Below are positions 47,737-63,985 of a stretch of DNA of 64,000 bases, piece after piece (position 1 is the stretch's first letter; each line of letters begins with the position of its first letter). Location: positions 2,320 to 66,319 of IMG/VR virus record IMGVR_UViG_3300009537_001827; one strand, given 5' to 3'. The notes under the pieces were generated by a model. That model saw only the letters and a program-made list of their open reading frames with translations. It searched no databases and was not told the DNA's origin. Source of the DNA: a virus. The position numbers and the translations under genes are program-made.

Positions 47737-49449
47737 TTAGAGGCTCAGTGTGTCGAGGATCTGCTCGACTTGCTCTGGCGTCGTCATCGGAAACATGACC
47801 GAAAGCTCTTTCCGTATCTGCTGACGGATCTGCACATTCGTCGCACCAATGGATCTCCACTTCGACACGATGTCGCGAGCGACCGCCAGAGGCCCGGCCA
47901 CGACTTCATGCTTCATCTGGGATTCAAAGGCATCTGGAGGAAGGAACTGCCACGCAATTCGAGTAATCCTCTCGACTGCATCTGCACCCAATCCCAAGCT
48001 CCAGAGAAAATCCCGGACCCCCACACGATCACCGCGAGAAACGAGGAGAGCCAGTTGTTCCGCTTCGGGCTCCGACAGGTCATCTCCACTCACGGAGTCC
48101 AATATCCTCTGAGCGACCCACGCAGGATCTTGAAACGAGAAAGCCTCATGCTTGAGGGACTCGAATCCGCCACCCATCCTGATCGCCTTCGATGCCGCGC
48201 TCTTCGGGCTCACCCCGCTGTCGTACCAATCGCGGAACGGAGCATCGGCCAGATCGTAGACCGAGAGCCCCGCCTTCGCCCAGACGGCGTTATCGACCGC
48301 CTTCATCCAGTCCTCGAAGGACATCCGGGCGAACTCGTGCTTCCGGGATTCCAGCGACCCCGCCTGAATCAGAAACTTCTGGATGAAAGGATCGAAAGTC
48401 CTTGCCTCAGAAAATCCGAAAGACGAGAGGACCCGAGGCACAGAGGCATAGAAATCGAGAGGCCTCTGCTCGTGCTTCTTTGATTCAGAGAGAGCACCTG
48501 TATCCGAAGCCACGAGGCTCAACTCGTAGCTCTGGAACTTGCGGTTGCCTCCCTCATCGAGCTTCACCGTGATCGACTCGTCATCGTTGAACCTCTCGAC
48601 CGCTCCGATCTTGCCACGAGCTTCGTTCTCGTCCGCCATCACGGCCACACGGTCGCCGATGGAAAAGCCCCGGAACTGGAAGAGCATCTCCGGATCGGGA
48701 GCTTCGCCGAGACGGTCATCCTCGACAGCGGTCTGCGACGGGAGGTAGCCACCCCGGTCAGCATCGACAGGGGGCTCGCCCTGCTCGTGACGAAGGGACT
48801 CCCCCAGAGAGTTCTCATCAGGCTCAACCTTTGGAGGCATCCCGGACCAAGCTCCCCTCATCTTGATGCGGTCAACCTCAGCCTGAGCTTCTTCTCTCGT
48901 AGGGAACCACGCGACGGAGGTGTATCTTCCGCCTCCGTAGGTCATCACGTAGAATCCCTCTTGCCGAAGAGATTCCGTGTAGTGGGGAGATTGCCTCCAA
49001 GGGGTCACGGCTCGGGCGATGTGATTCGTCCCTCCTATTCCCGGGCTCCGGGAGAAATGAAGATAAGCATCACCGTCTTCAGAGAACTCGACACAATCAG
49101 GACCGTCTTCACACAGTCTTTTGGTCCCAAACGTGCCTGCATATTTCGCGTTGAACTCTTCGAGAGCATCCTGTTGCCATCTCTCATAAGAGGCCCAGAA
49201 ATCCTCCTGCCGCAGAGCACTCTCGACCACAGACTCCGGATTCTCTCCGCGAGCGATCCGTCGAATCAGGTTCTCCATCTCTTCTTTCTCCTGAAAGGGT
49301 ACGAGAGGCCCTCCGCAGGCCGAGCACATCTGCGGGTAGCGCCCCTTGTAAACCGGGACATGAAGTCCGCACTCCTGACAGACGAGCTTCGTCCGACCGC
49401 CGTGGAAAGAGTTCGCCATGCCTCGCGTGATCGAAACCTTATTGGTCAT
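47737..49449 (-). CDS. Modular polyprotein with seven ES-x-[KR]-[HQ]-E-type linkers
   Basis: ESALRQE, ESLRQE, ESLRHE, ESKKHE, ESRKHE, ESLKHE, ESQMKHE separate small unrelated domains; N-terminal zinc ribbon. Confidence 0.75.
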   Translation of the reverse strand: MTNKVSITRGMANSFHGGRTKLVCQECGLHVPVYKGRYPQMCSACGGPLVPFQEKEEMENLIRRIARGENPESVVESALRQEDFWASYERWQQDALEEFNAKYAGTFGTKRLCEDGPDCVEFSEDGDAYLHFSRSPGIGGTNHIARAVTPWRQSPHYTESLRQEGFYVMTYGGGRYTSVAWFPTREEAQAEVDRIKMRGAWSGMPPKVEPDENSLGESLRHEQGEPPVDADRGGYLPSQTAVEDDRLGEAPDPEMLFQFRGFSIGDRVAVMADENEARGKIGAVERFNDDESITVKLDEGGNRKFQSYELSLVASDTGALSESKKHEQRPLDFYASVPRVLSSFGFSEARTFDPFIQKFLIQAGSLESRKHEFARMSFEDWMKAVDNAVWAKAGLSVYDLADAPFRDWYDSGVSPKSAASKAIRMGGGFESLKHEAFSFQDPAWVAQRILDSVSGDDLSEPEAEQLALLVSRGDRVGVRDFLWSLGLGADAVERITRIAWQFLPPDAFESQMKHEVVAGPLAVARDIVSKWRSIGATNVQIRQQIRKELSVMFPMTTPEQVEQILDTLSL

Positions 49450-49940
49450 ACTCCCTCCAGAACCCTTTTGAAGATAGCTCTGGCCTTCTCGAAATCACCG
49501 TCCCAAGTCGCACGCTCGGCCTCGGCCACCTCGGCTTCAGACGCACGGTTATAGAACCGAAACGTGTCCATCACCGAGATCCCCGGAATCGGGCCGAACT
49601 CAAGGAACCGATTCAGGCCCTCTCTCTTCTCACTCACAGGAGCATCGACCTCCGCGAATAGCAGGGTATCCGGAACGGAGAAGGTTCCTTCGATCAGCGC
49701 GTCGATGGCACGGTCGAGCCCGCTCTGATGCTTGAAGAACTGGACCTGCTTCTCTCGTTTCTCGGCCCCAGCCTTAGTGTCGTAGCAGCCAAGATTCTTG
49801 TTGCTCTTTTTCGAGAAGAGACACCACTTACTACCCTTCTTTCGGATCGTTTCCCCGAGCAGCACATCTCCCAGAAGATTCCTGTCCACCTCTACGTCAT
49901 CCGAGATTCGGGGAGGGACCAGAATAATCTCCTCGTTCAT
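49446..49940 (-). CDS. Head-region hypothetical protein
   Basis: ETIRKKGSKWCLFSKKSNKNLGCYDTKAGAEKREKQVQFFKH small basic domain; GAGGAGG RBS. Confidence 0.7.
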   Translation of the reverse strand: MNEEIILVPPRISDDVEVDRNLLGDVLLGETIRKKGSKWCLFSKKSNKNLGCYDTKAGAEKREKQVQFFKHQSGLDRAIDALIEGTFSVPDTLLFAEVDAPVSEKREGLNRFLEFGPIPGISVMDTFRFYNRASEAEVAEAERATWDGDFEKARAIFKRVLEGV

Positions 49941-49956
49941 CCGGTTGCCGGCCTCC

Positions 49957-50673
49957 TCATCTTCGCAGCCAATCGATGAGCTTCCGAGCCTCTGCGGCCC
50001 TGTTCTGTTGCGCCATACCAGAAGCCGCTGTCCGTTGAGCGAAGCCCTTAACCCCGGGAGAACCGGTATTGGCGCGACTTCTAACGTCCGTTCTATCCTC
50101 CAGATCGTTGAGCAAGCGGTATTCATCGACGCGAACAGGGTCACTGAATCTAGGGGTACGACCGACCGAATCGACGGTGAACTTGTAAACGCCATCGGAC
50201 AATGATGCCGCACGAACATAGAAATCCCGCTCTCCCGGCAGAGCACTACGCTCGTAGTCATCCAACCGATCAGCGTAGAGATTTCCCTGCGCGACACGGG
50301 CCACCTCTCCACGCCCGCCTCGGATTCTCAGGTAACCCTTCGTGACAGCCTCGGACTTTAGATGATTTGAAGAACGCCGCCCCCATTCGAGCCACGTTTT
50401 CAGCAGGCCCATGTTCTCTCGTTTTTCGACGAAAGCCCAATCGAACCCCTGTCTCACCGCAGCCTCTTTGGTCGCCACGTAATACGTTCGACTCTCACAA
50501 GGATACTCCCAGAACTCGCCCTCCCCCATCGCCCTGTACCCCCGGATTGTTTTCGCCGGTTTACCCGATAGGGTCATCGGACATTCAATAGGAAGCCACG
50601 CACGCGCTTCGGATCTGGAAGAGAAAGGACCGGCGATGACTCCCTCACCCATCGTCAGGACGAACCAGTTCAT
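49957..50673 (-). CDS. Head-region modular hypothetical protein
   Basis: GPFSSRSEA domain; internal WLEW motif. Confidence 0.65.
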   Translation of the reverse strand: MNWFVLTMGEGVIAGPFSSRSEARAWLPIECPMTLSGKPAKTIRGYRAMGEGEFWEYPCESRTYYVATKEAAVRQGFDWAFVEKRENMGLLKTWLEWGRRSSNHLKSEAVTKGYLRIRGGRGEVARVAQGNLYADRLDDYERSALPGERDFYVRAASLSDGVYKFTVDSVGRTPRFSDPVRVDEYRLLNDLEDRTDVRSRANTGSPGVKGFAQRTAASGMAQQNRAAEARKLIDWLRR

Positions 50674-51128
50674 CCGGTCGCCGGTCGCTTCATCTTCGCC
50701 CCACTGGAAGACGGAAGCACGTTGTAAGGAGTCTGTCCAAACCTGCCACTCTTCCAGATCGTTGCCAGAGTCGCCGCATCGACCTCGACGAGGATCACTG
50801 GCCTACCCGCTCCGCCAACCAGTTGATTGAGCATCACGTCCTCGCTCATGATGAACTCATCACGCGCCGCCAGCGTGGCAGTCAACTCACTGAGGAATCT
50901 CCTCGCCTGCCCCTTCGAGAACGGCCCATAGCGGTATTCCCGGCTGTACGGATCGCTCTTGTATCCCGACTTCTCGACCCCGAAGAAGTAACCCAATCCG
51001 GGGGACTGCCAGACCCAGATCGGAAATTTCGGTGCGCCCTGAACGGATTGTCCTTTCGGGTAACGATCCGAAGGCGACCAGACCCGTTCCTGCCGAAGAG
51101 CCCATTCGAGCCAGACGTTCCTCGCCAT
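50670..51128 (-). CDS. Head-region hypothetical protein with WLEWAL leader
   Basis: MARNVWLEWALRQE. Confidence 0.65.
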   Translation of the reverse strand: MARNVWLEWALRQERVWSPSDRYPKGQSVQGAPKFPIWVWQSPGLGYFFGVEKSGYKSDPYSREYRYGPFSKGQARRFLSELTATLAARDEFIMSEDVMLNQLVGGAGRPVILVEVDAATLATIWKSGRFGQTPYNVLPSSSGAKMKRPATG

Positions 51129-51141
51129 GACCCGTGATTCG

Positions 51142-51462
51142 TCACTTTTCGAAACGGGAATAGAGCGCCTGACAGAACCGCTCAGGGCTCGACCCGCCGG
51201 GGATGTCCCCGAGCTTGTCGCCGAGCTTCTCGATGCACTTCGTCCGCTTGTGCTCGACATCGCCGACGAGCGTGCGCCAGAACTTCCCCCACTTCTCCGG
51301 ATCGTCCTCGATGGCTTCCTCGATGGAGCGATGAGCGCCACTGATCCCGAGAACGGGCTCCGTCGTCATGCCGAGGAACCTCTCCACCACGGCGTCGGGC
51401 TTCATCCCCTGCTCGATCATCTCGATGGCCTTGTCGATGGCCGGGCAACCTCTGCAACTCAT
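51142..51462 (-). CDS. Small head-region protein with shared tag motif
   Basis: AIEMIEQGMKPDAVVERFL; C-terminal KCIEKL...PERFCQAL. Confidence 0.7.
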   Translation of the reverse strand: MSCRGCPAIDKAIEMIEQGMKPDAVVERFLGMTTEPVLGISGAHRSIEEAIEDDPEKWGKFWRTLVGDVEHKRTKCIEKLGDKLGDIPGGSSPERFCQALYSRFEK

Positions 51463-51478
51463 CTTCCGATCCCCTTTC

Positions 51479-52579
51479 TCATGGAATGTCCCACGCGCTT
51501 CCCGCCTTGAACGACATCACGTTATCGACGACATTCTGAGGGGCATCGGTGATGAGATACGGAGCACTCGCCTTCGCATCGTATCCCTTCGCCACGAGCT
51601 TCGAGGCGAGGCTGTCGAGTTCACTGTGACTCAACTCTGGATGGTAATGCCTCTTCATCCGCTCGTGCAGAAGACCCTCTCCCTTCTCCTCATCTTCATC
51701 TTCGTCCTCGTCACCATACTGCTCACGCTTCTGTGAACCTTCCGGGTCGAGCAGGAAGTCGATCACCGCATCCGGGTTCTCGCCCGCTTCGATGAACTCC
51801 ATCGCCGACTCAACGTACTCTCTGTCCGTATGCTCCTGTACGGGCTCGCCTCGCATCACTGCCTCCGCTGCGTGCAGGTCATGAAGGAACTTCCCGGACT
51901 TCTGAAGGCTCGGCTGCCAGAGGTCGCAGGTATGATGCTTGAACATGTCGCCCTCGACCAGTTCGCAGCGACCGACCACATCGACGCCTTCCGGGTTGTC
52001 CTTCGCCTCCTCGAACCCGGGAAGCTCCTCTTTCGGCATCATGAAGCGACAGGAGGCACAGACCTGATTGCGAAGCTCCATCCGGCCCTCCATGATCCCC
52101 GGACGATAATTCACCTGTTCTTTGGGAGCCTTGTCCACGCCGAAGTGATGAGGCCCCCAGAGCCACTGACGCTGAGCGGTCGTCAGATCGGCGATCACCG
52201 TGTTGTGCTCCTGCACCGGCAGCTTCTTTTTCACGATCTCCGCTGGCCAACCCTCTTTCAACTTCGCAACCATCCCTGCGGACAGCATATCCCGAGTGGC
52301 CACCGCCCGAGAGAGCGTTCCATCATCCCACCGAACGATGACAATCTGTTCCCTCTGCCAATCCGAGGGAAGATCCTCAATTATCCCTGTTCCAACTTCT
52401 CCGGGACTTGGCCACGCGTCACGCACCCTCATTCCCAGAGGGCTCGATACGCCCTGCTCTTGTTTCCCACAACAGGAGAGCACCTCGTCGATGCTGACCG
52501 ATTCCAGTCCGTGCCGCCTCGCCTTCTGAGCGAGTTCGGGAGCGATCAACTCAAGTTCTTCGAGACTGAGCTTCTTCAC
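51479..52579 (-). CDS. Modular protein with SH3-like and HiPIP-like (4-Cys) domains and tag motif
   Basis: VNYR...CASCRF...CELVEG...CDLW; AMEFIEAGENPDAVIDFLL. Confidence 0.7.
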   Translation of the reverse strand: MKKLSLEELELIAPELAQKARRHGLESVSIDEVLSCCGKQEQGVSSPLGMRVRDAWPSPGEVGTGIIEDLPSDWQREQIVIVRWDDGTLSRAVATRDMLSAGMVAKLKEGWPAEIVKKKLPVQEHNTVIADLTTAQRQWLWGPHHFGVDKAPKEQVNYRPGIMEGRMELRNQVCASCRFMMPKEELPGFEEAKDNPEGVDVVGRCELVEGDMFKHHTCDLWQPSLQKSGKFLHDLHAAEAVMRGEPVQEHTDREYVESAMEFIEAGENPDAVIDFLLDPEGSQKREQYGDEDEDEDEEKGEGLLHERMKRHYHPELSHSELDSLASKLVAKGYDAKASAPYLITDAPQNVVDNVMSFKAGSAWDIP

Positions 52580-52751
52580 GGTACGCCTCCTCGTACAACC
52601 GATCCAGTTCGGTCGCGATCTCACTGTCGAGATTCGTCGGGTCACAACGAGAGAGCAGGATGTCCGCCCTCTGCATCTTCGATCTCAGATTTCGGGTCTT
52701 TCCCAAACGTTCCTGAAGGACTTCGAGCGGGTCAGTCTTCGTCGTCGTCAT
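52551..52751 (-). CDS. Small helical hypothetical protein
   Basis: 66-aa ORF overlapping both neighbours. Confidence 0.5.
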   Translation of the reverse strand: MTTTKTDPLEVLQERLGKTRNLRSKMQRADILLSRCDPTNLDSEIATELDRLYEEAYREEAQSRRT

Positions 52752-54315
52752 GCTTCTTCCGCTTCTGCGGGAAGGGAGCCCGGATCACAGGTCCCATCGG
52801 CCTGTCGTATGTCGCGATCATACCGGTCGTCAGGTCCTCCTGAGTCGGGACACAGAGCCCCGTCACCTCGTCCTTCTTGTGCCCCTCAGGGCATTTCTCC
52901 CGGCTACCCGGCCCGGTGCCCGGACTGGCCGCCTTCATCGCGTCTGAGCCCGCTTTTCGCGCGAAGACGCTGCCTGCTGCATCGTGGCTGTGACGGGAAC
53001 TGTACCCCCCGGTCACGGCCTCCTCGATCTCGATGAGCATGAGTTCGGCGTCGGCGATGAGTCCTTCCAGATTCTCCATCCCTGTTTCGATGTCTTCCTC
53101 GCCGGATCCGGGCTCGTCCTCCTCGTCCTCACCTTCGTCCTCGGGCTTCTCTTCTTCCTCTTCATCCGAGGTCAGATCCACGCCATCACCGAGCAATTGA
53201 TCGACGTTGATCTCCTCGATCTCACCGGTCTCGGACCTGACGATCAGGGTATCGCTGTCCTCGTCGGTCACGGTCCCGGCCATGATATCCCCATCGTTCG
53301 TCAGGAAGCGGATCTTCTCCCCAATGAGCGAGACTTCCTCTTCGCTCTGGTCCTCGGCCCCGGGGACATCCGACGTAGAAGGATCGACCTGCGTCTCGTC
53401 CGACCCGATTTTGGGGCTCTCCTCTTCCTCATCTTCCTTGTCGTCGGCTTCTTCGGGCTCGGCCTGCTCCTGCCGGGTCACCATCTGGATGTCGATGTCG
53501 CGGACCCGGGGAGACGCTTCGAGCTTGTGCTTGATCTCGTAAGCCGAGGACGGGCGGGCGAAGAACATCAAGAAATCCACCCCGGTACTGACGCGATGCG
53601 CTCCGTACTCCCTGAGCATCATCGCGATCTCATCGAGGCTCGCGGTCCCCGAGTACGCCCTCACGTACCATCGACGCTCGTCACCCATCGCCTTGGAAGT
53701 GAGGAACGTCGAGGGCGGAGGCTCACGCAACACGACCGACCGGGGGAACGCAGGCTCGTCACGGGCTCCCACAAGGAAACTGGACGGCAACGCCTCTTCG
53801 ACCCAGCCCGAAGGATCGGCACTGTACTTCTTCTGCGCCGCCTCCCTGAAGCGCGTTGGAGGCACGTCCCTGACATCTATGGGCTCGGGGTTCCCGATCA
53901 CGTAGGCGCGAAGCTCCTCAGCCTCGCCGGAGTATTCGAGATGGCACGGCCCGAGCCAGCATTGCGCTCCCGAGTGGTGGAACAGGGATCTCGACTCCCC
54001 AATCTTCTCGACCCGGGTCGCGAGAACGTCGAGCGACGGGACGTGCTTCTCGCTCTCGGCGTAGCGCATCCACGAGGAGAGGTCCACCCGGGACCCGAAG
54101 TAACGCCGGACCTCGCGGCCATCGGAGACGACGATGTAGTGCCCCTCCAATTCGGAGAACAACGGTCCCTCAGCCACGACGTTCCCCGCTCGGATCGAGG
54201 ATGACGCACGCCCGCCGCCAAACCGGTACTCGTCGAAGAGGTCGTTCACCTTTCGGAGCCCGGCCCCCTCGAACTTCGACGCTCTCCTGAACGCCTGAAT
54301 GTCGCTATCGCTCAT
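52732..54315 (-). CDS. Acidic modular head-region protein
   Basis: Glu/Asp-rich tracts, Sm/SH3-like segment LIGEKIRFLTNDG, CPEGHKKDEVTGLCV. Confidence 0.7.
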   Translation of the reverse strand: MSDSDIQAFRRASKFEGAGLRKVNDLFDEYRFGGGRASSSIRAGNVVAEGPLFSELEGHYIVVSDGREVRRYFGSRVDLSSWMRYAESEKHVPSLDVLATRVEKIGESRSLFHHSGAQCWLGPCHLEYSGEAEELRAYVIGNPEPIDVRDVPPTRFREAAQKKYSADPSGWVEEALPSSFLVGARDEPAFPRSVVLREPPPSTFLTSKAMGDERRWYVRAYSGTASLDEIAMMLREYGAHRVSTGVDFLMFFARPSSAYEIKHKLEASPRVRDIDIQMVTRQEQAEPEEADDKEDEEEESPKIGSDETQVDPSTSDVPGAEDQSEEEVSLIGEKIRFLTNDGDIMAGTVTDEDSDTLIVRSETGEIEEINVDQLLGDGVDLTSDEEEEEKPEDEGEDEEDEPGSGEEDIETGMENLEGLIADAELMLIEIEEAVTGGYSSRHSHDAAGSVFARKAGSDAMKAASPGTGPGSREKCPEGHKKDEVTGLCVPTQEDLTTGMIATYDRPMGPVIRAPFPQKRKKHDDDED

Positions 54316-54608
54316 CTCGATACCCGGACATCATCACAACTCGGGAACTGTACGCCTCTCGCGCCCTCTACGTGGATGCAAATCAGCTTCCGGTTCAGGA
54401 GCATCTCCCTCTGAATATCTTTGTTGTCCCGCGACAGATTTTCGAGCATATCGAAGATGCTGTCCCTCGTCTGCGATCCGAAATGCAACTCAGTGCTGCT
54501 GACGTGCCCGTTCACCGTAACGTAAGCCCCGCCAGCCGCGAAGGCGATACTGACCACGAACAGAAGGCCACCACCGATCAGAAACTTTATCATCAAGCTG
54601 TTCTTCAC
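54312..54608 (-). CDS. Single-TM membrane protein (holin-like?)
   Basis: FLIGGGLLFVVSIAFAAGGAYV followed by a coiled coil. Confidence 0.55.
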   Translation of the reverse strand: MKNSLMIKFLIGGGLLFVVSIAFAAGGAYVTVNGHVSSTELHFGSQTRDSIFDMLENLSRDNKDIQREMLLNRKLICIHVEGARGVQFPSCDDVRVSR

Positions 54609-54829
54609 TCCGTCGCCTCCTCGTTTCCGACGAACGGCCGACACTCTGCAACGGCCTTATCCCAATACCACCCCTCCCGACACACCTCACGAGGGTCTTC
54701 ACCCGTGGAGGAATCCGGAGCCGGTAGTTCGACCAGATACCTAACGACCTTCTCCGGCGAAGCTCCGCTCTCAATCAGGAAGATCCCGACATCGACCCTA
54801 GAGAATAGGCGAAAATTGTGGTTCATCAT
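54605..54829 (-). CDS. Small protein with tag motif and Cys pair
   Basis: IFLIESGASPEKVVRYLVE; CREGWYWDKAVAECRP. Confidence 0.6.
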   Translation of the reverse strand: MMNHNFRLFSRVDVGIFLIESGASPEKVVRYLVELPAPDSSTGEDPREVCREGWYWDKAVAECRPFVGNEEATE

Positions 54830-55295: not shown

Positions 55296-55316
55296 TGACC
55301 CTCCGTTGAGTTAGAG

Positions 55317-55379
55317 GGAAGGGGACTGGACACCGGACCATCCGGCTTTCCCCCTTTGAAGACACGCCAGCCCCCTTCC
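55317..55379 (-). other. Intergenic multi-stem RNA structure
   Basis: 13-bp closing stem GGAAGGGGGCUGG/CCAGUCCCCUUCC (G-U on minus strand) enclosing CCGGA/UCCGG hairpin. Confidence 0.45.
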
Positions 55380-55384
55380 ACTCC

Positions 55385-56275
55385 CTACATCTGAACGCCA
55401 ACCTCCGTCGCGGAACCGTAGTCGGTGACCTGCCGCTCGACCTCACCCTCCTCGGGATCCGTGTAGCGCAGATCAGGGATGTTCTGCGGCTTCTCCGCCG
55501 ACACATCCGACGCGGGCTTGCCGGTCAGTTCGCCCACGAACCGCGCCTGCTTGCGGGCCACGACCGTCCGCGTTCCGCTCGATGTCTCGATCAGAACATG
55601 CTGCCCATCCGCCGCGACGACCTTGCACTCCCCGAGACCGTGGATCTTCACCCGGTCGCCCTTCAGAAGCTCGACCGACCGGCGGTACGACTCCTCCTCA
55701 CCGCCCTCTTCCTCGTCCTCTTCCTCGTCGTCCATCGCTCCCCCGGGTTCCTCATCCTGCTCCCACCATTTCTTTCCCTCGATCTTCGCGCCGGACGCCA
55801 TGTTGTAATCCTGATCGGCCTTCGGCATGAAGAACGTGTCATCGATGTTCGACGCCTTCGGACCGAACTCGTCCGACTTCATCTTGACCGGAAGCGGGGG
55901 AATGGGCTTGCCCACCAACTCGGACAACAGCGGCGTGCCGATCCTCCGGCGCAACTTCGTCTCCGCCATCATCCCCGCAAGGCCGTGGACGGCCGTCACG
56001 AGTTCATCGACCGCCTTGCGAATGCCCTCGGCGTTCTTCATGTCCGGGGCCTTGTCCACCGTCGCCCGAACCTCCGCCAGAGCATCGATGACCTGCGACA
56101 GGTTCGGAGGTAGGGTCCCACCATTCCCGTTACCTTCGGGCGCGGCCTCGGCACCTCCCTCGTCACCGACCACATCCACCATCGCCTGATCGACGGCATC
56201 CTCGGCATCCTGTTCCCCGAAGGCGACCCGCTCGATCAGCGCACGAGCGTTGAATTTCTTCGACATGATCCTCAT
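55385..56275 (-). CDS. Acidic scaffold/core-like head protein with tag motif and SH3-like domain
   Basis: LIERVAFGEQDAEDAVDQAM; poly-E tract; KGDRVKIHGLGECKVV. Confidence 0.65.
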   Translation of the reverse strand: MRIMSKKFNARALIERVAFGEQDAEDAVDQAMVDVVGDEGGAEAAPEGNGNGGTLPPNLSQVIDALAEVRATVDKAPDMKNAEGIRKAVDELVTAVHGLAGMMAETKLRRRIGTPLLSELVGKPIPPLPVKMKSDEFGPKASNIDDTFFMPKADQDYNMASGAKIEGKKWWEQDEEPGGAMDDEEEDEEEGGEEESYRRSVELLKGDRVKIHGLGECKVVAADGQHVLIETSSGTRTVVARKQARFVGELTGKPASDVSAEKPQNIPDLRYTDPEEGEVERQVTDYGSATEVGVQM

Positions 56276-56301: not shown

Positions 56302-56321
56302 AACTGAATCACATCTGATTC
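56302..56321. promoter_or_regulatory. 8-bp inverted repeat (operator or hairpin)
   Basis: CTGAATCA-CATC-TGATTCAG, intergenic. Confidence 0.45.
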
Positions 56322-56329
56322 AGAACCGA

Positions 56330-56809: not shown

Positions 56810-56883
56810 TGTAGTTACCTCTCGTGGTTGAATGAACGCGGTTATGAAGAACGACTACACTCTCGATCTATTTCTCACCGGCA

Positions 56884-57648
56884 TCATTGCCGTGGCCCAT
56901 ACCCGTAAGCAACTGCTCGTTTCTTGATCTCCTCCGTGAGCTTCTCGACGGCATTCGTACCCTCAGTCACCATGCTTGAGCCATCCATCTTCAGACGACT
57001 CTCCCACTTCCTGCGCGTATGCCCCAATGTCACCTTTGCCAGCGCAAGGCAGAAGTCCATCACCCAATCCTCATCGGTCGAGCGCACATCCGCGAGAGCC
57101 GGTAGCTTCGCATAGCTGTACTCGATCTCGTAAGGCGGGAACGTGTCCCCGTGCCACGCCGGGCTGATGTAGAGGACTCCATGCGTCTTGATGTCCGGTG
57201 GACCTCCCGGATTTTCGTCGATCTCCTCGAAGCGGAACTCCCAATCGAAGTTCGTCGCTGTGGCCCGACGAATGTTCTCGATCTCCGCCGTCCTCGCGAG
57301 GAAGTCCGCCAGAGCATTCGCCGGTCGGGTCGGCAGGATGTTGCCCGGGATCCCGAGCAGCGTCGAGTCGATATTCCCAAACGGGATCTGCTCGACCGGA
57401 CCCCTTACGTCCACCACCCGCTGCCCGAACTCCTTCCCCTCAGCGGTGAGGTCATACCTCTGTTTGCTCGGCGCGACGTTGAACCGATTCCAGCGGATGA
57501 TCGGACGCCACCGGCTATAGACCCTGAGAGCGTGGTCGATGACCGACTCGATATTCGAGTCTTCCCCACTCGTCAATTCTGCATCCACGAGCGGACCACC
57601 GAGGAAACTCTTCAGGTGCTTCTCAACCTGCTTGTCAGTCAGCGGCAT
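56884..57648 (-). CDS. Neck/head-tail adaptor (T4 gp13-like)
   Basis: LGGPLVDAEL...IDHALRVYSRW; WVMDFCLALAKVTLG..RRKW...DGSSM..EG. Confidence 0.8.
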   Translation of the reverse strand: MPLTDKQVEKHLKSFLGGPLVDAELTSGEDSNIESVIDHALRVYSRWRPIIRWNRFNVAPSKQRYDLTAEGKEFGQRVVDVRGPVEQIPFGNIDSTLLGIPGNILPTRPANALADFLARTAEIENIRRATATNFDWEFRFEEIDENPGGPPDIKTHGVLYISPAWHGDTFPPYEIEYSYAKLPALADVRSTDEDWVMDFCLALAKVTLGHTRRKWESRLKMDGSSMVTEGTNAVEKLTEEIKKRAVAYGYGPRQ

Positions 57649-57664
57649 CTATTCTCCGAGTGCT

Positions 57665-57821
57665 GGGACCTAACTGTGAGCGCCAAGTTCTCCGCCCGAA
57701 TGGGAACTATCCGAACGGTTTATCCCCTCTCACAGCTAGGCCCTCGAAAAAGGTGCTGCCGCCACGATGGTCCCGCGACTTTGACCCAACTCACCTCGAA
57801 GGGGGAGCGGTGACGGCAGCA
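57665..57821 (-). ncRNA. Tandem structured RNA elements
   Basis: Closing stems UGCUGCCGUCAC/GUGGCGGCAGCA and GGGCCUAGCUGUGAG/CUCACAGUUAGGUCCC, each with a G-U pair on the minus strand and two inner hairpins. Confidence 0.45.
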
Positions 57822-57832
57822 TAGTAACCCGA

Positions 57833-58153
57833 TCAGACGACGACGTACAGAATTTCCCCCGCTACCGCGCCGGGAGAATCGAGAGTCAGGGCCTCGTTGT
57901 CGCCTCCATCGATGCCGATACCGGGATCTCCGTAAGGCGTCCGCGTGTCTTCGGTCGCGCCCGCCGCGAGCCCAACGACCTGAATCACCGAAGTCGCAAA
58001 CGTCAGAGCCCCCGCTCCGCTCATGTGGAAGCCGAGAATTCTGATCCGACTGCCCACTCCCGGAGCCGCGATAACGACGGTCGCAACCTGTGCCCCTCCG
58101 TAGTTGAAAGTCTCCCGGAGCGCCCCGAACTCGACTGATGCTGGAACCGGCAT
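57833..58153 (-). CDS. Small structural protein, distant paralog of 25109..25414
   Basis: VIAAPGVGSRIRILGF...EALTL...GEILYVVV. Confidence 0.6.
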   Translation of the reverse strand: MPVPASVEFGALRETFNYGGAQVATVVIAAPGVGSRIRILGFHMSGAGALTFATSVIQVVGLAAGATEDTRTPYGDPGIGIDGGDNEALTLDSPGAVAGEILYVVV

Positions 58154-58161
58154 TGATCACC

Positions 58162-58530
58162 TCACGTCAGTTGTGCCAAAATCTCCCACGTCCCGGACTC
58201 ACGTTCGTACCACGAGACGGACAGCATCGAATTCGAAATCGGAAGAGGCGAGAACGGATCCTCGATGTTCGCGTAAGCAATTCCAAAATTGTGCGGAGGG
58301 CTCGTGAACTTGAAGATGTCCGCCGCAAAGACATCGGCGGGCTCAATTCGCCGCGAAGCAAGGATCTCCGAAATCCGATTGAGCGCCTGACCAATGCTCT
58401 GAAACCGTCCGTTGCCGTCGAGACCTGCGTTCCGAAACAGTGAATTGACAAGCTGCCTCTCGCTCTCGGAGAGGGAGTATGTCCCAAGCTGCTCTCTCTT
58501 CAGTGCCCACTCAAGCCACGGCTTCTTCAC
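58162..58530 (-). CDS. Head-region protein with WLEWAL leader
   Basis: MKKPWLEWALKREQ. Confidence 0.7.
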   Translation of the reverse strand: MKKPWLEWALKREQLGTYSLSESERQLVNSLFRNAGLDGNGRFQSIGQALNRISEILASRRIEPADVFAADIFKFTSPPHNFGIAYANIEDPFSPLPISNSMLSVSWYERESGTWEILAQLT

Positions 58531-58913
58531 TTCGTTCCTCCGTTGCGAGCTTCGGCGTGCCGAATAGACTCTCCCTTTCCGTCATCGCCCATGTACGTCT
58601 CGCGCTTATGACGGAACTGTCGAACGCTGAACCCGAGCCCTCCCGCGATGAAACCGAGCCAAAGGCCCCATGCGACAGGCTCGAACACATGCTGATACTC
58701 GATCTGCGTCTCCGGCTTGATTACGAAGACGAATGCAACCTGCACCGCGAGGTAGACGACTCCGGATAGAACCGCGAGCCCCCCGAACAGGACGTACATC
58801 CAGTTCGTCGAAGGCAGATCACGGGCGTACTCCTTCGTCCATTCGAGGAAAGTTGCAGGCGACCTGATGAACTTCCAGACCGCGTTCTTGACCCTCCCAA
58901 CCCACGCAGGCAT
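58527..58913 (-). CDS. Two-TM membrane protein (holin-like)
   Basis: Two TM segments, charged C-terminus. Confidence 0.6.
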   Translation of the reverse strand: MPAWVGRVKNAVWKFIRSPATFLEWTKEYARDLPSTNWMYVLFGGLAVLSGVVYLAVQVAFVFVIKPETQIEYQHVFEPVAWGLWLGFIAGGLGFSVRQFRHKRETYMGDDGKGESIRHAEARNGGTK

Positions 58914-58915
58914 TT

Positions 58916-59407
58916 TTATGGAACCGGATCGTGGAGAAACGAGAACCCCGACCCGACATTCGGGATGAAGATGTCGTACCCCTCCGCGCTGATCACCATC
59001 CGGTGCCCCGTCTCATCGTTGACCGCGCAGACGTACTCCCGCATCGGGCCACCTCCCGCGTACTTGCAGCGACCGATCTTGTATCCCCGCCGCACGCGAG
59101 CGAGAGCGACCGTCCTCTGGATCTCCGAATCGAACGGGACATCCTCCGGGCTAAACTGCTCCCGCTTGTAGCCCTCCTGCATCACGAGATGCCGGGCCGG
59201 GACATCCATCGTCCCCTTCTCCGTCTCGATGGTGCAGAGATCGCCGTCTTCCTTGAGGGCGATCACTTTCCCAGAAATCGGAGAGGGAAGGCCCTGCACG
59301 AGGACACGGTTGCCCACGGCGAAGCTCGGGACCATGTAATTCTCGACCACGGTCTTCGGGTCTTCGCCCCGCTCGATCCGCTTGACGAGTTCTTCGATGC
59401 TGCTCAT
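58916..59407 (-). CDS. Modular protein: tag motif + SH3-like domain + EGYKRE linker
   Basis: LVKRIERGEDPKTVVENYM; FAVGNRVLV; EGYKREQF. Confidence 0.7.
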   Translation of the reverse strand: MSSIEELVKRIERGEDPKTVVENYMVPSFAVGNRVLVQGLPSPISGKVIALKEDGDLCTIETEKGTMDVPARHLVMQEGYKREQFSPEDVPFDSEIQRTVALARVRRGYKIGRCKYAGGGPMREYVCAVNDETGHRMVISAEGYDIFIPNVGSGFSFLHDPVP

Positions 59408-59428
59408 CTTTTGGCCATCTTCCCTTCC

Positions 59429-60433
59429 TCAGTAAGGCATCTCGCCGGGCTGCACCATCCCGGCGGGCACCACAAAGACCTCGTACCGCTTGTGGCTCGT
59501 CTCGGCGACGACGACAGGCTGTCCTCGATACTGGTAAACCGGCCAGAACGGGCCGTAGAAGTACGGACTCGGGATCTCCTTCGGCGTCACGATGTAGCCG
59601 ATGGTGTCACCGACCTCATCGAGGAACCGACCGTAACCGACGTGGCTCGTGATCGTCTTGACCTTTTGAAACTGCTCGTGCTTGAGCGACTCCAGATACC
59701 CGGATGAACTGAGTGCTGCGAGGATTCTCTCCTTCACATCCTCCGGAAGCCCGAGGTCTTCGAGCAGGTAATAGAGCCTCATCGAGTCCCGGCTCGTGTT
59801 GAGGAACCCGAGCACGACATCGATGGCGTACTCGCTCGCCCCCGCCCGTCTGAGCAGGGTTTGTGGCGTGACCTGCTCGTGCCTCAGTCCCCCTCCAAGC
59901 CGCTCGCGCTCCAGAGATTCTCCGATGATTCTCGCGTCCCCCGCTAGGATCTTCTTCATTCCATCAACCGTCTGGATATACAGAATGAAGTAGCCCCGAA
60001 TGGAATCGTGCTCAACTCCGGTAACAATCCCCTCGACTTCCTCTCCGTGCGGCATGGAAGGCCCGTAGACAATCTTCCCTACCGGGTCCTCGTGCATCCG
60101 TCCGTAGCTGAACTGAATCAGCCTGCCTTCCTGCTCAACCGTGGGAATTCGACGCTTGCCTTCGAGATGCTTGAACGCGAATTCGGCGAGCCTCACGATC
60201 TCACCGGCCCCCAGCATCCGGACAAACTTCTCCTTCGTCTCCGGCTTCTGAAGCGCATCGTAGACTTTGAGCAGAGCACTCGCCGTGAAGAGATCGACGG
60301 TATGCCCGGCGACCTTACCCGCCGTGCTCGTGTCCACGATCTTGCGGATCTGCTGGACAGCATCGGGCTCGCCCTGCTCGGTCATGTACCTGCGGTATCG
60401 CTCCCGAAAGATCCGGGAATTCGGCAGCACCAT
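59429..60433 (-). CDS. Modular polyprotein with LRHE/ESLKHE linkers
   Basis: VDLFTASALLKVYDAL domain; GLRHEQ, ESLKHEQ. Confidence 0.7.
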   Translation of the reverse strand: MVLPNSRIFRERYRRYMTEQGEPDAVQQIRKIVDTSTAGKVAGHTVDLFTASALLKVYDALQKPETKEKFVRMLGAGEIVRLAEFAFKHLEGKRRIPTVEQEGRLIQFSYGRMHEDPVGKIVYGPSMPHGEEVEGIVTGVEHDSIRGYFILYIQTVDGMKKILAGDARIIGESLERERLGGGLRHEQVTPQTLLRRAGASEYAIDVVLGFLNTSRDSMRLYYLLEDLGLPEDVKERILAALSSSGYLESLKHEQFQKVKTITSHVGYGRFLDEVGDTIGYIVTPKEIPSPYFYGPFWPVYQYRGQPVVVAETSHKRYEVFVVPAGMVQPGEMPY

Positions 60434-60459
60434 CTCTCTATCCTTGAGTTAGGAACGAG

Positions 60460-60759
60460 TTAGAACGGCAACGCCATCGTTGGGAAGAGGACCGACATGA
60501 TATCTCTCGCGAACTTCTCCTGATCCCGCTCGACTTCTATTCCCAGATCCCGCTCTGCGAAGCCTTCGAGCCTCGCGAACTTCCCCTCATCGTCGGAGTC
60601 CTGAAACTCGATGCTTCCCACGAAGTCGAGGAGTCGGTTCCTCTCGATTTCGCTCAGGCCCCACTCGCCCGAGACGATCCGGAGCTTCCTCACATCCACG
60701 CTGAGTTGCTCCGCTATTCTTCGCTCGCGGAGCACCAGATGTTTGATCCTACGTCGCAC
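60460..60759 (-). CDS. Hypothetical protein
   Basis: GGAAGG RBS; in operon. Confidence 0.6.
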   Translation of the reverse strand: MRRRIKHLVLRERRIAEQLSVDVRKLRIVSGEWGLSEIERNRLLDFVGSIEFQDSDDEGKFARLEGFAERDLGIEVERDQEKFARDIMSVLFPTMALPF

Positions 60760-60768
60760 GAGCCTTCC

Positions 60769-61428
60769 TTAGTAGAAAACGATGTCGGGCCAGCCGTCCC
60801 TGAGCATATCGAAGCAGCTATCTCCACTCGCAAAGAAGTCTGTGCTCGTTGGTGACCGCGAGCCCTCTGCCGCTTCCCAACTTCCATCCTCATAGAGCCT
60901 AATCCAGCGATTGCCCTTCCGCCACAACTGAATGCTCCCTACTCCGGAGGCTCCTGCCTGAGTCTCTTGATACACGTACCCCTCACGTTCAAGAGCATCG
61001 GTGCAGCCTGTCTCAAAGGGAGGAAGTGCTTCCTGTTTCGCTGTCTCTCGCTCGACGATGAGTTCGGGATCGGCTCCCTTCTCAACGGCCTCGACCAGCG
61101 CGTCGATCCTCTTCATGGACTCGGCTCCTATGTAGCTCTCGTTGCCCTTGCCTTCGTGCTCTTCGCACATCGACTCGTCATCGACGAACTGACAGGGATC
61201 GAAGTACTCGCTGATGTCCACGCTCCCGACTTCCATTTTGAAGCTCTCGTGGCCATCACCATCCCAATCGAAGCTGATCGTCCGGGACGAACCCCAATCT
61301 CCGAGGACCTTCATCGTCGCGAGGAGAGCCGTGATCTTATCGACCACACTGACCTGACCCGTGATCTCGAACGTCCGGGTCAGTTTGTCAGGCGCGTACA
61401 GTTCGTGCTTCCTCTTCACAAGTCCCAC
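60769..61428 (-). CDS. Modular protein: tag motif + HicA-like domain
   Basis: LVEAVEKGADPELIVER; DALEREGYVYQ...QLWRKG. Confidence 0.65.
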   Translation of the reverse strand: MGLVKRKHELYAPDKLTRTFEITGQVSVVDKITALLATMKVLGDWGSSRTISFDWDGDGHESFKMEVGSVDISEYFDPCQFVDDESMCEEHEGKGNESYIGAESMKRIDALVEAVEKGADPELIVERETAKQEALPPFETGCTDALEREGYVYQETQAGASGVGSIQLWRKGNRWIRLYEDGSWEAAEGSRSPTSTDFFASGDSCFDMLRDGWPDIVFY

Positions 61429-61739
61429 TCAGGCTCGGGAAGCTCAGCCTCCTTGACCTTCATCATCACGCGACCTTGAGATTCGAGCGGAGGGGTGTAA
61501 TCGAGAAAGTCCTTGAAGGAAATCGCCCCACACTCAACGAGCACATCACGGCGCTCTTCATACGACTTCGCTGCCTTCGCTTTCTCGTTCGCCTCATCCG
61601 CTTCGGGGTGACCGCAATGACCGAACTCTTCCCAACAGTCGCCGCAGAGAGGTCCGATGCAGTACCAGCAGGCTTCCTCGTTGCCGTTGTCGGTCTCTTT
61701 CTTGCAGCGACCGCAGTTCGTCGTCGTCAGCAGGACCAT
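61416..61739 (-). CDS. Zinc-finger protein
   Basis: CGRC, CWYC, CGDC, HCGH. Confidence 0.7.
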   Translation of the reverse strand: MVLLTTTNCGRCKKETDNGNEEACWYCIGPLCGDCWEEFGHCGHPEADEANEKAKAAKSYEERRDVLVECGAISFKDFLDYTPPLESQGRVMMKVKEAELPEPEWDL

Positions 61740-62071
61740 CAGTCGATCAACTCATCGTAGCGGGTGAAGTATTCGTTCAGCGAAATGCGACCGATCCCCT
61801 CAGCCAGTTTCTTCCCTGACTCGACCACCCTCCAGAACCACGAGGCCCAAACCGTCGTCCCCACCCCGACCGTCACTTCGAGATCCGCGTTGTTCGGATG
61901 ATGCCACACATCGGCCCCGGCACGAATGAATCGCGGGTTCAGTTGCGTGTAAAGCTGATCGGTCCGAACGTAGCTGAAGCCAAGGTCCGTGAGTTCCTCG
62001 GCAATGTCGAACTGTGTGATCGGAGGCGTCAATGCGATGGCCTCTGAACCCACATCTTCCTGAGCCAGCAC
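61739..62071 (-). CDS. Hypothetical protein (HicA-like fold?)
   Basis: AEELTDLGFSYVR...DVWHHP. Confidence 0.55.
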   Translation of the reverse strand: MLAQEDVGSEAIALTPPITQFDIAEELTDLGFSYVRTDQLYTQLNPRFIRAGADVWHHPNNADLEVTVGVGTTVWASWFWRVVESGKKLAEGIGRISLNEYFTRYDELID

Positions 62072-62089
62072 CAGTAGAATTGCTTCACA

Positions 62090-62737
62090 TCACCACGCCT
62101 CAGGGTCGAAACCCCATCCCAAAGTGTCCTTCGTATCGAGCCCCCACTCCGTCCAGCCGTCCCGGTGGCCGTTCCGGGCGAAGAGATCGAGCCTCGGACC
62201 CCGGCAGGCCCGCTCGACTATCGCGTAAAACGGCTGCGGCTTCACGGAATGGCCCTCAGGAGGCGCGAACAGGACGCTGGGCACGTCCCGGACCTTGAAC
62301 CGGTTGTTCTTGCCTCTGACGCCAAGTATGGCCGTTTCGTGGCTTCCCCTGAGGTAGAGCCCCAGCCCGATCCTTACGAGGTCTTCCGGGCTCATGACCG
62401 GTTTTCTGGTCCGCTTGAAGATCAGCCGGGCAATGTCCCCCGGCTCAAAATCGAACTCAGTCGCCTTCGTCTTCACCCACACCAACTGCCCGACAGGTCG
62501 GTAGCCCCACGCATCGAGGACCCGGATGTGATCCCCGGCATTGATGTGGTAGCTCGGCACCCACAACCACAGGAAGCCGTTCTTCATCGCCACCTTCGGG
62601 ACCGGGAGCTTCATCATCTGCTCCACGGTCAGCACCGGATAGTGTTCGCGGCTCCGGCTCACCTTCCTCTGCCACAGCCATCCTCGCGGAAATCCCCAAG
62701 GCGGATCGCAAACGATAGTCTTGAATTTCTTAGGCAT
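62090..62737 (-). CDS. MT-A70 family adenine methyltransferase
   Basis: FKTIVCDPPW, HYPVL, LWLWV, WGY, WVK, HE, HSVKP, LDLFAR..GW..WG. Confidence 0.92.
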   Translation of the reverse strand: MPKKFKTIVCDPPWGFPRGWLWQRKVSRSREHYPVLTVEQMMKLPVPKVAMKNGFLWLWVPSYHINAGDHIRVLDAWGYRPVGQLVWVKTKATEFDFEPGDIARLIFKRTRKPVMSPEDLVRIGLGLYLRGSHETAILGVRGKNNRFKVRDVPSVLFAPPEGHSVKPQPFYAIVERACRGPRLDLFARNGHRDGWTEWGLDTKDTLGWGFDPEAW

Positions 62738-63323
62738 CGCGCCGCCTCCCGTTAAGTTGGATGACGCGCCGCCTCATTCGTTCACGCCGGGCAACTGTTT
62801 TTCTCGCTAACCCATTAACTCCCGGATGCGACCCTGCTTGTTCATCTCGAAGAGCGAGAAGAATCTCCGCCTGTTCTCTCTTGATGATTAGGTAAGGAAT
62901 GACCGCTCGAAGAACAGGCCCAAGCGCCTTTCCTGCCAACGTCCATTTGTAGCACGGACGAAAACCTCGCTTGTCCGTGATTTTGTTGATCCAGCCACCT
63001 GCTATCTTCTGCGCCTTCTCCAACAGACGCCGATCAGTATTCGCGGCCTCCAAAACAGGCCAATGATTATCACTCTTCTGGTGCTTGCGAGCCGAGCGAC
63101 GAGCGATGGAACACGACCCCTCCCCATCTATTAGACAGGCAAACCAAGCCGCGTCAATGTCAGAGATTTCTCTCTCTTCTTCCTGTCCCGGAAGGAAGAT
63201 TGTCGGGCTCCCATGTCGCCACCACCTGTGATAGTGTCTCGCACACCAACCCCGGCAATAAGCAGGAGCACCACAATCCTTGACTTTGCACTTCTTCTTG
63301 GAGCGTTTCGTGGTCGCGGACAC
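62730..63323 (-). CDS. Free-standing LAGLIDADG homing endonuclease with N-terminal zinc finger
   Basis: AAWFACLIDGEGSCSI, PYLIIKREQA; N-terminal CxxxxC...CxxHYxRW..HG; lower GC. Confidence 0.85.
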   Translation of the reverse strand: MSATTKRSKKKCKVKDCGAPAYCRGWCARHYHRWWRHGSPTIFLPGQEEEREISDIDAAWFACLIDGEGSCSIARRSARKHQKSDNHWPVLEAANTDRRLLEKAQKIAGGWINKITDKRGFRPCYKWTLAGKALGPVLRAVIPYLIIKREQAEILLALRDEQAGSHPGVNGLARKTVARRERMRRRVIQLNGRRRDA

Positions 63324-63340
63324 GAGGCTCCTCCTTTCGA

Positions 63341-63985
63341 TCAGATGTAATCCATCAAGCTTTCCGGACCTTGGCCAGCTACCGAGGGCAGAGTCGTCAT
63401 CGATGGGCCTCCAAACTCAGCGGCGATCTTCGACACGACCCACTTGCCTTCCGGCGTCACGTAGACGGTCGTTATGTCGCCGCCGTAGCTTCCCTTCTGC
63501 CACACCTGAGAGACACCCTGCTGTCCCTTGTGAACGAAGCCTTTGAACGTGAGGAGCTTCTCGATGTCGAGAGGCCCGAGGACTTCATGTCGCAGTCGGC
63601 CCTCACCGAGGAACTGACGGAGATCGTTCTGAAGCTCGACGGCATCGCCACCAGTCGCGATCTTCTCCGGAGCATCCTCTCCCGGCGTAATGTCGTAGAG
63701 AGCCCACCGGCCATCATGCAGAACCTCGACAGCGGCCACGATCTGCCCGGCACTCCCGAGCTTGAACCAGTAATCCCAAGCCCCCAAGCGATCCCTCGTC
63801 TGGAAGCCATGAGCCCGGAGCACCCGCTCGACCTCGGGATCGGTGGACTCGCGCTTCAGGCTCTCACCGCGCAGACGGTGAGCCTCCCGGAGGACCTCGA
63901 TGACCCGGTTGCCCTCCATCTCGAAGTGCGTCCACAACGACTGCGCGATGAAAGTGTCGTCGTGGCCTTCCTCGATCATCGACAT
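63341..63985 (-). CDS. Modular protein with two HicA-like domains separated by linkers (may start upstream of the window end)
   Basis: ESLKRES, RLRHEV; VLRAHGF..., LLTFKGFVHKGQQG. Confidence 0.65.
   Translation of the reverse strand: MSMIEEGHDDTFIAQSLWTHFEMEGNRVIEVLREAHRLRGESLKRESTDPEVERVLRAHGFQTRDRLGAWDYWFKLGSAGQIVAAVEVLHDGRWALYDITPGEDAPEKIATGGDAVELQNDLRQFLGEGRLRHEVLGPLDIEKLLTFKGFVHKGQQGVSQVWQKGSYGGDITTVYVTPEGKWVVSKIAAEFGGPSMTTLPSVAGQGPESLMDYI

Follow-up and report, generated by a model that had tools for sequence, protein, structure and literature searches.

A 22-residue helix-turn-helix tag on otherwise dissimilar proteins of one uncultured phage lineage and its possible role in head assembly

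The way in which proteins other than those of the shell and the scaffold are selected for packaging into a phage head is understood for very few phages. In phage T4, the capsid targeting sequence is described as an N-terminal propeptide of approximately 10-20 residues that is cut off (PMC9958956; PMC5694885), and the head proteases of the T4 family are described as cutting after Glu (PMC5694885). In phage P22, residues 271-300 of the scaffolding protein gp8 are described as a C-terminal helix-turn-helix that docks on the procapsid's inner surface (PMC9965877), and the same element has been reused for loading foreign cargo into P22 particles (PMC9962691). The polyvalent proteins found in phages and conjugative elements are described as multidomain proteins that are thought to be delivered together with DNA (PMC5512222). 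Here, we describe a 22-residue tag that is carried by six proteins encoded in the virus record IMGVR_UViG_3300009537_001827 of IMG/VR, and we compare it with these systems. The record is 66,319 bases long, lacks terminal repeats and is 44% complete according to CheckV. The window, i.e. the whole stretch of 64,000 nucleotides that was analysed, comprises bases 2320-66319 of the record, and all positions below are counted from the first base of the window unless a locus of another record is named.

The tag motif is real, is under selection at the protein level and is limited to one lineage. A pattern scan followed by a profile confirms it in six open reading frames (ORFs), all on the minus strand between 47.7 and 61.4 kb (Table 1). 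Each carrier protein has a single copy, and the copies are confined to a stretch of 14 kb. The consensus reads hydrophobic-x-x-hydrophobic-hydrophobic-x-x-Ile/Val-Glu-x-Gly-x-Asp/Asn/Ser-Pro-x-x-Val/Ile-Val/Ile-Glu/Asp-x-hydrophobic-hydrophobic, and its Gly and Pro are the same in every one of the 11 copies aligned, which come from the window and from the relative described below. Since a profile scores its own training members by construction, each copy was left out in turn, and a profile built from the other five was used to seek it among the 1261 six-frame segments of the whole 66-kb contig. The left-out copy was the best non-training match in six of six tests, with expect values (E) of 1.3e-6 to 0.061, and the next matches had E >= 1.3. 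For each of the six copies, none of 8400 residue-shuffled proteins of the region reached the left-out score; the left-out scores range from 8.0 to 22.7 bits, against shuffled maxima of 5.5-7.9 bits. This includes the weakest member, found in the ORF of 74 amino acids (aa), which is nevertheless the top non-training match.

An initial annotation of this DNA had listed the tag on eight proteins. Six of these are the carriers above, and the other two fail both the profile and the ortholog checks. The N-terminal helix of the 296-aa ORF 55385-56275 (56180..56245, minus strand) matches the profile at E 6.8, and its ortholog has neither the Gly nor the Pro. The N-terminus of the 214-aa ORF 63341-63985 (63935..63979, minus strand) matches at E 6, and its ortholog alignment begins only at residue 46. 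The same annotation called the tag often N-terminal, which describes half of the carriers: the tag begins at residue 12 or earlier in the 163-, 106- and 74-aa ORFs, is internal in the other three and is C-terminal in none. Its view that the carriers are unrelated is mostly borne out, as all-against-all BLASTP finds them dissimilar outside the tag of approximately 20-25 residues, apart from weak SH3-like segments and linkers. When the DNA of the six copies is aligned, invariance is found only at codon positions 1 and 2, with third bases that differ between copies in the codons for Gly and Pro. What is selected is therefore the peptide and not a nucleic-acid element, and a repeat at the DNA or RNA level is ruled out.

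Relatives were sought in IMG/VR, in JGI metagenomes and in GTDB genomes. The sole sizeable relative found is a 36.5-kb record (G001; loci L001, L003 and L004) that is 25% complete, to which one 2.4-kb contig can be added; no relative was found in the GTDB genomes. Searches with single proteins gave the same picture: the 570-aa ORF has no relative among viral contigs, the 163-aa family has only the 36.5-kb record among viral contigs, and a conserved 254-aa protein has only the 36.5-kb record and the 2.4-kb contig among metagenome and viral contigs and none among genome contigs. G001 is syntenic with 51-64 kb of the window at a protein identity of 40-65%. The tag is kept in its orthologs of the 388-, 163-, 106- and 219-aa ORFs and also occurs in two of its ORFs that have no counterpart in the window, namely a 55-aa ORF consisting of the tag and a charged tail, and, at the N-terminus, an ORF that has relatives of 83 aa. 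With a profile made of the six window copies only, locus scans find five ORFs at E <= 8.2e-4 in L001, including the ortholog of the 219-aa ORF at E 8.2e-4, and one more in L004. The lineage thus has at least eight carrier families, i.e. the six of the window, the 55-aa ORF and the 83-aa family, the last two seen only in relatives.

In six of eight ortholog pairs, conservation of the tag equals or exceeds that of the remaining alignment. In the 388-aa ORF, for example, it is 86% and 82% identical to its orthologs, whereas the rest of the alignment is 64% and 59% identical. The tag of the 163-aa ORF is conserved in the relatives P0002-P0005, and in relatives of this ORF from other sources the tag and the barrel behind it are nearly unchanged while N-terminal extensions and the C-terminal domains past a conserved linker differ. 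An ortholog of the 106-aa ORF (P0012) keeps the tag together with Cys3, Cys6, His71 and Cys76, and a relative of the 570-aa ORF (P0023) keeps the zinc ribbon and the tag and has a different domain after them. Mini-ORFs of 52-83 aa in the relatives contain little beyond the tag and a charged tail.

Outside the lineage, a profile of 11 tags was searched against 1.84 billion representative proteins and gave 23 matches at E <= 1e-3. The 14 matches that consist of a single stretch are window proteins, proteins of the relative and a few close homologs, all from this clade, and no single-stretch match lies outside the lineage at this threshold. The nine multi-stretch matches are ankyrin, HEAT/NACHT and other tandem-repeat proteins, some without a Pfam match, which score by summing weak stretches. 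The initial annotation had held that mostly cellular or non-virion matches would speak against a packaging role; with 14 lineage proteins of no known function and nine cellular repeat proteins, the search gives no verdict either way. A sequence profile search of the PDB found local matches only, 14-16 residues long with E 5e-4 to 0.05, at helix-turn-helix junctions of proteins that include diaminopimelate dehydrogenase, designed helical repeat proteins and the archaeal RNA polymerase subunit Rpo10. Pfam, searched with the 11 tag segments up to E = 10, returned only DUF2802 and SapB_2, matched by one member each (E 0.18 and 0.22), and PHROGs returned three unnamed families, again matched by one member each (E 0.019-0.28). 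On this comparison the pattern is a generic solution for joining two helices, and its single-copy form at such similarity is private to this phage lineage. An unrelated protein of 2236 aa in the representative library (P0007), without a Pfam family, has approximately 10 repeats spaced about 175 residues apart, each with a similar helix-Gly-x-Asn-Pro-helix.

The tag is modelled as two helices, the first amphipathic and the second short, that are joined by a Gly-x-(Asp/Asn/Ser)-Pro turn; the second ends in two aliphatic residues and an acidic one. A Gly that closes one helix and an Asp/Ser-Pro that opens the next are standard helix caps. AlphaFold2 predicts for the 163-aa carrier a helix at residues 4-12, a four-residue turn, a helix at residues 17-22 and a five-stranded barrel at residues 34-76; the block values of the predicted local distance difference test (pLDDT) are 65-73 on the tag helices and 63-85 over the tag and barrel, with a mean of 52.7 for the model, the rest of which is unconfident. 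For the 106-aa carrier it predicts, at low confidence, a helix at residues 7-17, a turn and a helix at residues 22-34 (block pLDDT 47-67, mean 50.4). The alignments behind these models are very shallow, with five sequences for the 163-aa and two for the 106-aa carrier, and the models were used only for the secondary structure of the tag and for the barrel. Foldseek finds nothing in the PDB at E <= 1e-3 for the 163-aa model, and its weak matches to SH3, Tudor and KOW barrels (best E 2.5e-3) are uninformative on the tag. In the ESM Atlas, the 106-aa carrier gives a best feature score of 0.81, a structural template modelling (TM) value below 0.5 and no family. A complex prediction aimed at self-association, for two copies of residues 1-80 (the tag and the SH3-like barrel) of the 163-aa carrier, run without controls, scored 0.01 (mark 0.42) and speaks neither for nor against binding.

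Every one of the 11 tag cores has a net negative charge (-1 to -7) and contains 8-12 hydrophobic residues among its 22. A DNA-binding helix-turn-helix domain was considered and rejected, given this acidity and the lack of a match to any Pfam family of such domains. The tag is too small for stable folding alone, and its hydrophobic content exceeds what a lone hairpin can bury. Its flanks are Gly-rich or acidic runs or linker motifs in the 219-, 388- and 570-aa carriers. The excess of hydrophobic residues, the nature of these flanks and the existence of mini-ORFs with little more than a tag jointly point to a unit that needs a partner.

Two head genes lie immediately upstream, in the direction of transcription, of the tag-bearing genes of G001. 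The first encodes a protease of 504 aa (L007:2220-3734, minus strand) of the T4 gp21 type, which matches Pfam Peptidase_S77 at E 4e-11 and phrog_207 at 1.2e-27. Its protease domain covers approximately residues 18-193 and is followed by a Lys/Glu-rich helical C-terminal extension of about 310 residues, so that the protein looks like a fusion of protease and scaffold. The second encodes a major capsid protein of 488 aa (L001:1132-2598) of the T4 gp23 type, which matches Pfam Gp23 at E 1.6e-57 and phrog_138 at 1.3e-55. The 55-aa ORF that is little more than a tag is the next gene past this capsid gene, and the sheath and tube genes of G001 come after the last tag gene. Likewise, the tail-completion, sheath and baseplate genes of the window are downstream of its tag genes. 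By gene content and order, the window appears to derive from an uncultured myovirus with a T4-type head, in which the tag carriers are encoded past the capsid gene and ahead of the neck and tail genes. The window contig stops 15 bases upstream of the 214-aa ORF (63341-63985), and because G001 is syntenic here, the head genes of the window are expected, and are presumably located, just beyond the contig end.

Two further short motifs accompany the tag (Table 1). The first is a linker, E-S-x-K/R-H-E, which joins modules. The 570-aa ORF contains it five times, the 334-aa ORF twice and the 214-aa ORF once; less strict forms are seen in the 163-, 388- and 219-aa ORFs, and the relative has many copies (e.g. 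at L001 4051, 4907, 7466 and 10232). Among the 28 ORFs between 46.7 and 64 kb, which form the region set, the core K/R-H-E is found nine times, compared with 1.16 +/- 1.08 times in 2000 shuffles (maximum 7), and relatives differ by whole modules exactly at the linker joints. A linker match is present in seven of the 28 ORFs, four of the six tag carriers among them (hypergeometric P = 0.02, with long proteins being more prone to both features). A linker-like motif ending in Glu lies 0-6 residues past the tag in three of the six carriers, and the others have none within 50 residues or none at all. The gp21-type protease of the lineage probably cuts at the linker.

The second motif is an N-terminal leader, in which a Met is followed by one or two basic residues and by W/F/Y-L/M/Q-E-W-A/G, and which runs into a linker-like K/R-x-E. 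It opens three ORFs of the window and eight of the relative, with the Met 3-6 residues upstream in nine of these 11 ORFs and a Val codon in the other two, and it resembles an N-terminal copy of the linker. Judging by the position of the leader, internal Met codons may well be where the overlapping ORFs 50670-51341 and 49957-50673 really begin. Because head proteases of the T4 family cut after Glu and the targeting sequences of T4 are N-terminal propeptides, the W-L-E-W-A leader, and not the helix-turn-helix tag, is the closer analogue of the T4 sequence in position.

Other modules are seen in proteins of the region. Small barrels resembling SH3, KOW or Tudor domains are seen in the 163-aa ORF (residues 32-76; 59180-59314), the 296-aa ORF (residues 206-241) and the 570-aa ORF (residues ~262-300), with BLASTP E of 0.016 and 0.11 between the segments of these three ORFs; similar Gly-Asp/Asn-Arg-Val segments are found by eye in the 527-, 388- and 334-aa ORFs. 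The 570-aa ORF also contains a DUF5419 (PF17441)/phrog_519 module at residues 377-423, which does not cover the tag at residues 58-79. The match has E 2.6e-6 and is below the Pfam gathering score; in its relative P0023, residues 266-314 match at E 1.4e-8, above the Pfam cut-off. A full-text literature search returned no paper that mentions DUF5419.

Of the readings considered, we tentatively favour, as the best supported, that of a docking handle in head assembly, present once per polypeptide and binding a common partner in the core of the prohead as it assembles. This reading could well be right, and we would be somewhat less surprised to see it fail than to see it hold. Binding would take place through the hydrophobic side of the hairpin, which is exposed; the prime candidate for the partner is the protease-scaffold fusion, and the next is the capsid protein at its inner face. 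A docked carrier would be brought into the head together with all the modules that follow along its E-S-x-K-H-E linkers, and if the protease-scaffold were the partner, the same contact that loads the chain would also offer its joints to the protease. The gp21-type protease could then cut the carriers after Glu inside the head. A linker lies near the tag in only three of six carriers, and the tag would therefore mostly stay on one of the products, unlike the T4 targeting sequence. We infer binding, partner, packaging and cleavage alike from sequence and gene order in two incomplete records (44% and 25%).

A more specific form of this docking proposal, which we consider doubtful but well worth stating, is that cargo would be loaded by two signals. 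A retained, acidic handle that is independent of position would dock entire modular proteins to the protease-scaffold core, and at the N-terminal W-L-E-W-A leader and the E-S-x-K-H-E joints the head protease would then divide the chains into individual small proteins. If this were true, the tag would represent a new class of transplantable capsid-loading address, P22-like in shape, independent in origin and spread over many cargo proteins. For docking in general, a short foldable handle that works at any position would be a second way of loading cargo and a practical fusion tag for T4-type capsids. Should the tag not be a capsid address, it is still a clean case of a 22-residue module that is specific to one lineage and is maintained by selection on many shuffled proteins.

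A number of observations weigh against docking in the head. The contig of the window itself has no Gp23 match and no capsid or protease gene in its 44% complete record, and the head-gene context comes from one relative that is itself 25% complete. The region is not purely structural, as it encodes an MT-A70 methyltransferase, an HNH endonuclease and two ORFs that look like membrane proteins by eye. Half of the tags are internal and half have no cut-like motif nearby, unlike the experimentally defined targeting peptide of the T4 type. The tag is acidic, whereas the helix-turn-helix of the P22 scaffolding protein is basic. In L001, the 74-aa ORF has an ortholog that retains the Gly and has lost the Pro (E 0.38), and conservation of the tag falls below that of the remaining alignment in two of the eight ortholog pairs (50% against 80%, and 36% against 51%). 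The conserved Cys and His on both sides of the hairpin in the 106-aa carrier suggest a compact, zinc-held bundle and not a free handle; C3, C6, H71 and C76 may form a zinc site that ties the hairpin to later helices. As for cleavage, a regular-expression scan of the relative reported no linker-type motif within the capsid gene L001:1132-2598, the translation of which was read as well, and the linkers are therefore no more than putative protease sites.

The alternative that survives best is that the tag is an inherited structural hairpin without a shared partner or a common role as an address. It would be what is best conserved of a single small helical domain, duplicated and shuffled among adjacent genes of the lineage, and would pack on the fold of its own carrier. 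This has a real chance of being correct, though we think it unlikely. Small modules abound in the region (SH3-like segments in three ORFs, C-terminal swaps at linkers, the DUF5419 module), the same local pattern is found inside ordinary folds and helical repeats, and the tag does not clearly exceed its surroundings in conservation. The four conserved Cys and His residues that bracket the hairpin and later helices of the 106-aa carrier also fit this reading. However, similarity between carriers ends abruptly after 20-25 residues, and the flanks are often acidic, Gly-rich or linker. The mini-ORFs of 52-55 aa hold only the tag and a charged tail, and therefore have nothing of their own to pack against. 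There is also only one copy per protein, all within 14 kb.

Two alternatives keep the idea of a binding surface and change its target. In the first, the tags would bind one another, such that hairpins of different carriers bundle and unite the modular proteins in a single complex, either within the capsid or outside it. An amphipathic helix-turn-helix whose 8-12 hydrophobic residues of 22 are more than a lone hairpin buries, placed once on each of several co-encoded proteins, would be compatible with such bundling. All 11 copies are net acidic, however, which disfavours bundles without counter-charges, and we regard this arrangement as improbable. In the second, the tag would be a handle for a target other than the capsid, e.g. 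a host protein acted on after infection or another machine of the phage. The modules are without a known family, as NCBIfam gives no family for any of the 13 proteins tested and Pfam none for any of the 11 relatives and neighbours, and they are shuffled, as is often seen with counter-defence or takeover proteins; the methyltransferase and the HNH nuclease are part of the same run of genes. Against such a target stand the position of the genes, which lie on one strand flanked by the capsid gene and by the neck and tail genes, and the co-occurrence of tag genes with the linker motif and the leader, so that this too seems an unlikely explanation. Finally, chance recurrence of a common helix-capping pattern is almost certainly wrong: the Gly helix end and Asp/Ser-Pro start are generic and occur locally in unrelated solved proteins, but all six left-out copies were recovered at rank 1, none of 8400 shuffles reached them, no single-stretch match was found outside the lineage at E <= 1e-3 among 1.84e9 proteins, and the tag is conserved in orthologs.

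Nearly all long ORFs of the window are on the minus strand. Matches to PHROGs and Pfam define a contractile-tail module, with the sheath at 42940-44802 and baseplate and hub proteins between 22 and 42 kb, as well as a weak tail-completion match at 47107-47736, two helicases at 12.6-15.7 kb, the MT-A70 methyltransferase at 62090-62737 and the HNH endonuclease at 62730-63323, the last two in the same run of genes as the tag carriers. In the region set, Pfam gives a family at E <= 0.01 for five of the 28 ORFs and none for 23, PHROGs give one at the same threshold for six and none for 22, and no match of either kind lies over a tag. No close isolated phage was found: the 272 phage records matched by the sheath all have less than 60% identity to it, and the sheath of the window and the capsid protein of the relative reach at most 36% identity to those of any isolated phage. 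At the low end of the window, several proteins (932-5645 and 6008-6871, minus strand) have N-termini resembling type IV pilins (phrog_3433, phrog_11596, phrog_27437), and a Ku-like DNA-end-binding protein (phrog_4873, E 7e-30) adjoins these genes.

A very acidic protein encoded among the tag carriers, the 527-aa ORF 52732-54315, has a C-terminus that resembles a segment of the G001 capsid protein. Its C-terminal 27 residues (residues 491-517; 52765-52845, minus strand) are 65% identical over 26 aa to capsid residues 77-102, at the start of the Pfam Gp23 match, and 78% identical over 27 aa to a leader-bearing 121-aa ORF of G001 (L001:18637-19002). The C-terminus may be a mimic of the capsid N-arm on a scaffold-like protein.

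Table 1. Positions of tag cores, linkers and leaders (window positions unless a locus of the relative is named)
Feature	Position	Strand	ORF	Details
Tag core	49213..49278	minus	570 aa, 47737-49449	Residues 58-79; left-out E 5.7e-4; after a double-CxxC zinc-ribbon-like segment, directly into a linker-like motif
Tag core	51373..51438	minus	106 aa, 51142-51462	Residues 9-30; left-out E 3.8e-6; directly after CxxC
Tag core	51749..51814	minus	388 aa, 51479-52645	Residues 278-299, internal; left-out E 0.0012; linker-like motif 5 residues past the tag, plus an acidic run
Tag core	54731..54796	minus	74 aa, 54605-54829	Residues 12-33; left-out E 0.061
Tag core	59333..59398	minus	163 aa, 58916-59407	Residues 4-25, N-terminal; left-out E 1.3e-6; followed by an SH3/KOW-like barrel
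Tag core	61042..61107	minus	219 aa, 60769-61428	Residues 108-129, internal; left-out E 4.4e-4; between an acidic/Gly-rich stretch and a linker-like motif
Linkers (five)	47902..48801	minus	570 aa, 47737-49449	Starts 48795, 48480, 48345, 48156, 47916; protein split into small modules
Linkers (two)	59672..59887	minus	334 aa, 59429-60433	Starts 59887, 59686
Linker	63581-63595	minus	214 aa, 63341-63985	One copy
Linker-like motif	59156..59170	minus	163 aa, 58916-59407	Past the tag and SH3-like module; domains beyond it swapped in relatives
W-L-E-W-A leader	58489..58530	minus	122 aa, 58162-58530	N-terminal; ends in a linker-like motif
W-L-E-W-A-type leader	51087..51128	minus	50670-51341	At an internal Met, probably the true gene start
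W-L-E-W-A-type leader	about 50370-50418	minus	49957-50673	At an internal Met
Leaders in the relative	L001 3727, 4679, 11390, 18646; L004 17389; L005 1215, 2674, 7388			

The tag can now be set beside the systems introduced above. The initial annotation had proposed an address like the targeting sequence of T4. The part of this analogy that stands is the setting: a short peptide is common to otherwise different proteins of a phage whose relative, G001, encodes a capsid protein of the gp23 type and a protease of the gp21 type, there is one tag per carrier, a linker is present in four of six carriers, accompanying motifs end in Glu, and the proposed role is that of an address for loading the prohead core. 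The part that does not stand is the form, as the tag, by comparison with the description of the T4 sequence, has 22 residues in two helices, is internal in three of six carriers and is without a cut-like motif nearby in three of six. The tag and the P22 element are both helix-turn-helices of no more than approximately 30 residues, but the P22 domain is the C-terminus of one dedicated scaffolding protein in another head-assembly system, whereas the tag is present on six different proteins at varied positions. No sequence relationship between the two was detected, and the P22 scaffolding protein is not among the 25 PDB profile matches up to E = 10.

Resemblance to other groups is more partial. 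Like the polyvalent proteins, the carriers are multidomain proteins built of shuffled small modules, and we know of no shared helix-turn-helix handle or E-S-x-K-H-E linker in polyvalent proteins. Ankyrin and HEAT repeats share the local pattern of a hydrophobic helix followed by Gly-x-Asp/Asn-Pro and provide the only matches outside the lineage; theirs are weak tandem stretches that are summed, whereas the tag has one copy per protein and is matched by no Pfam repeat model. Because position, charge, length and fate after processing differ, the tag falls outside both the T4 targeting sequences and the P22 family. It is closest to the T4 targeting sequence in its proposed role within T4-type heads and closest to the P22 helix-turn-helix in shape, and it is a member of neither.

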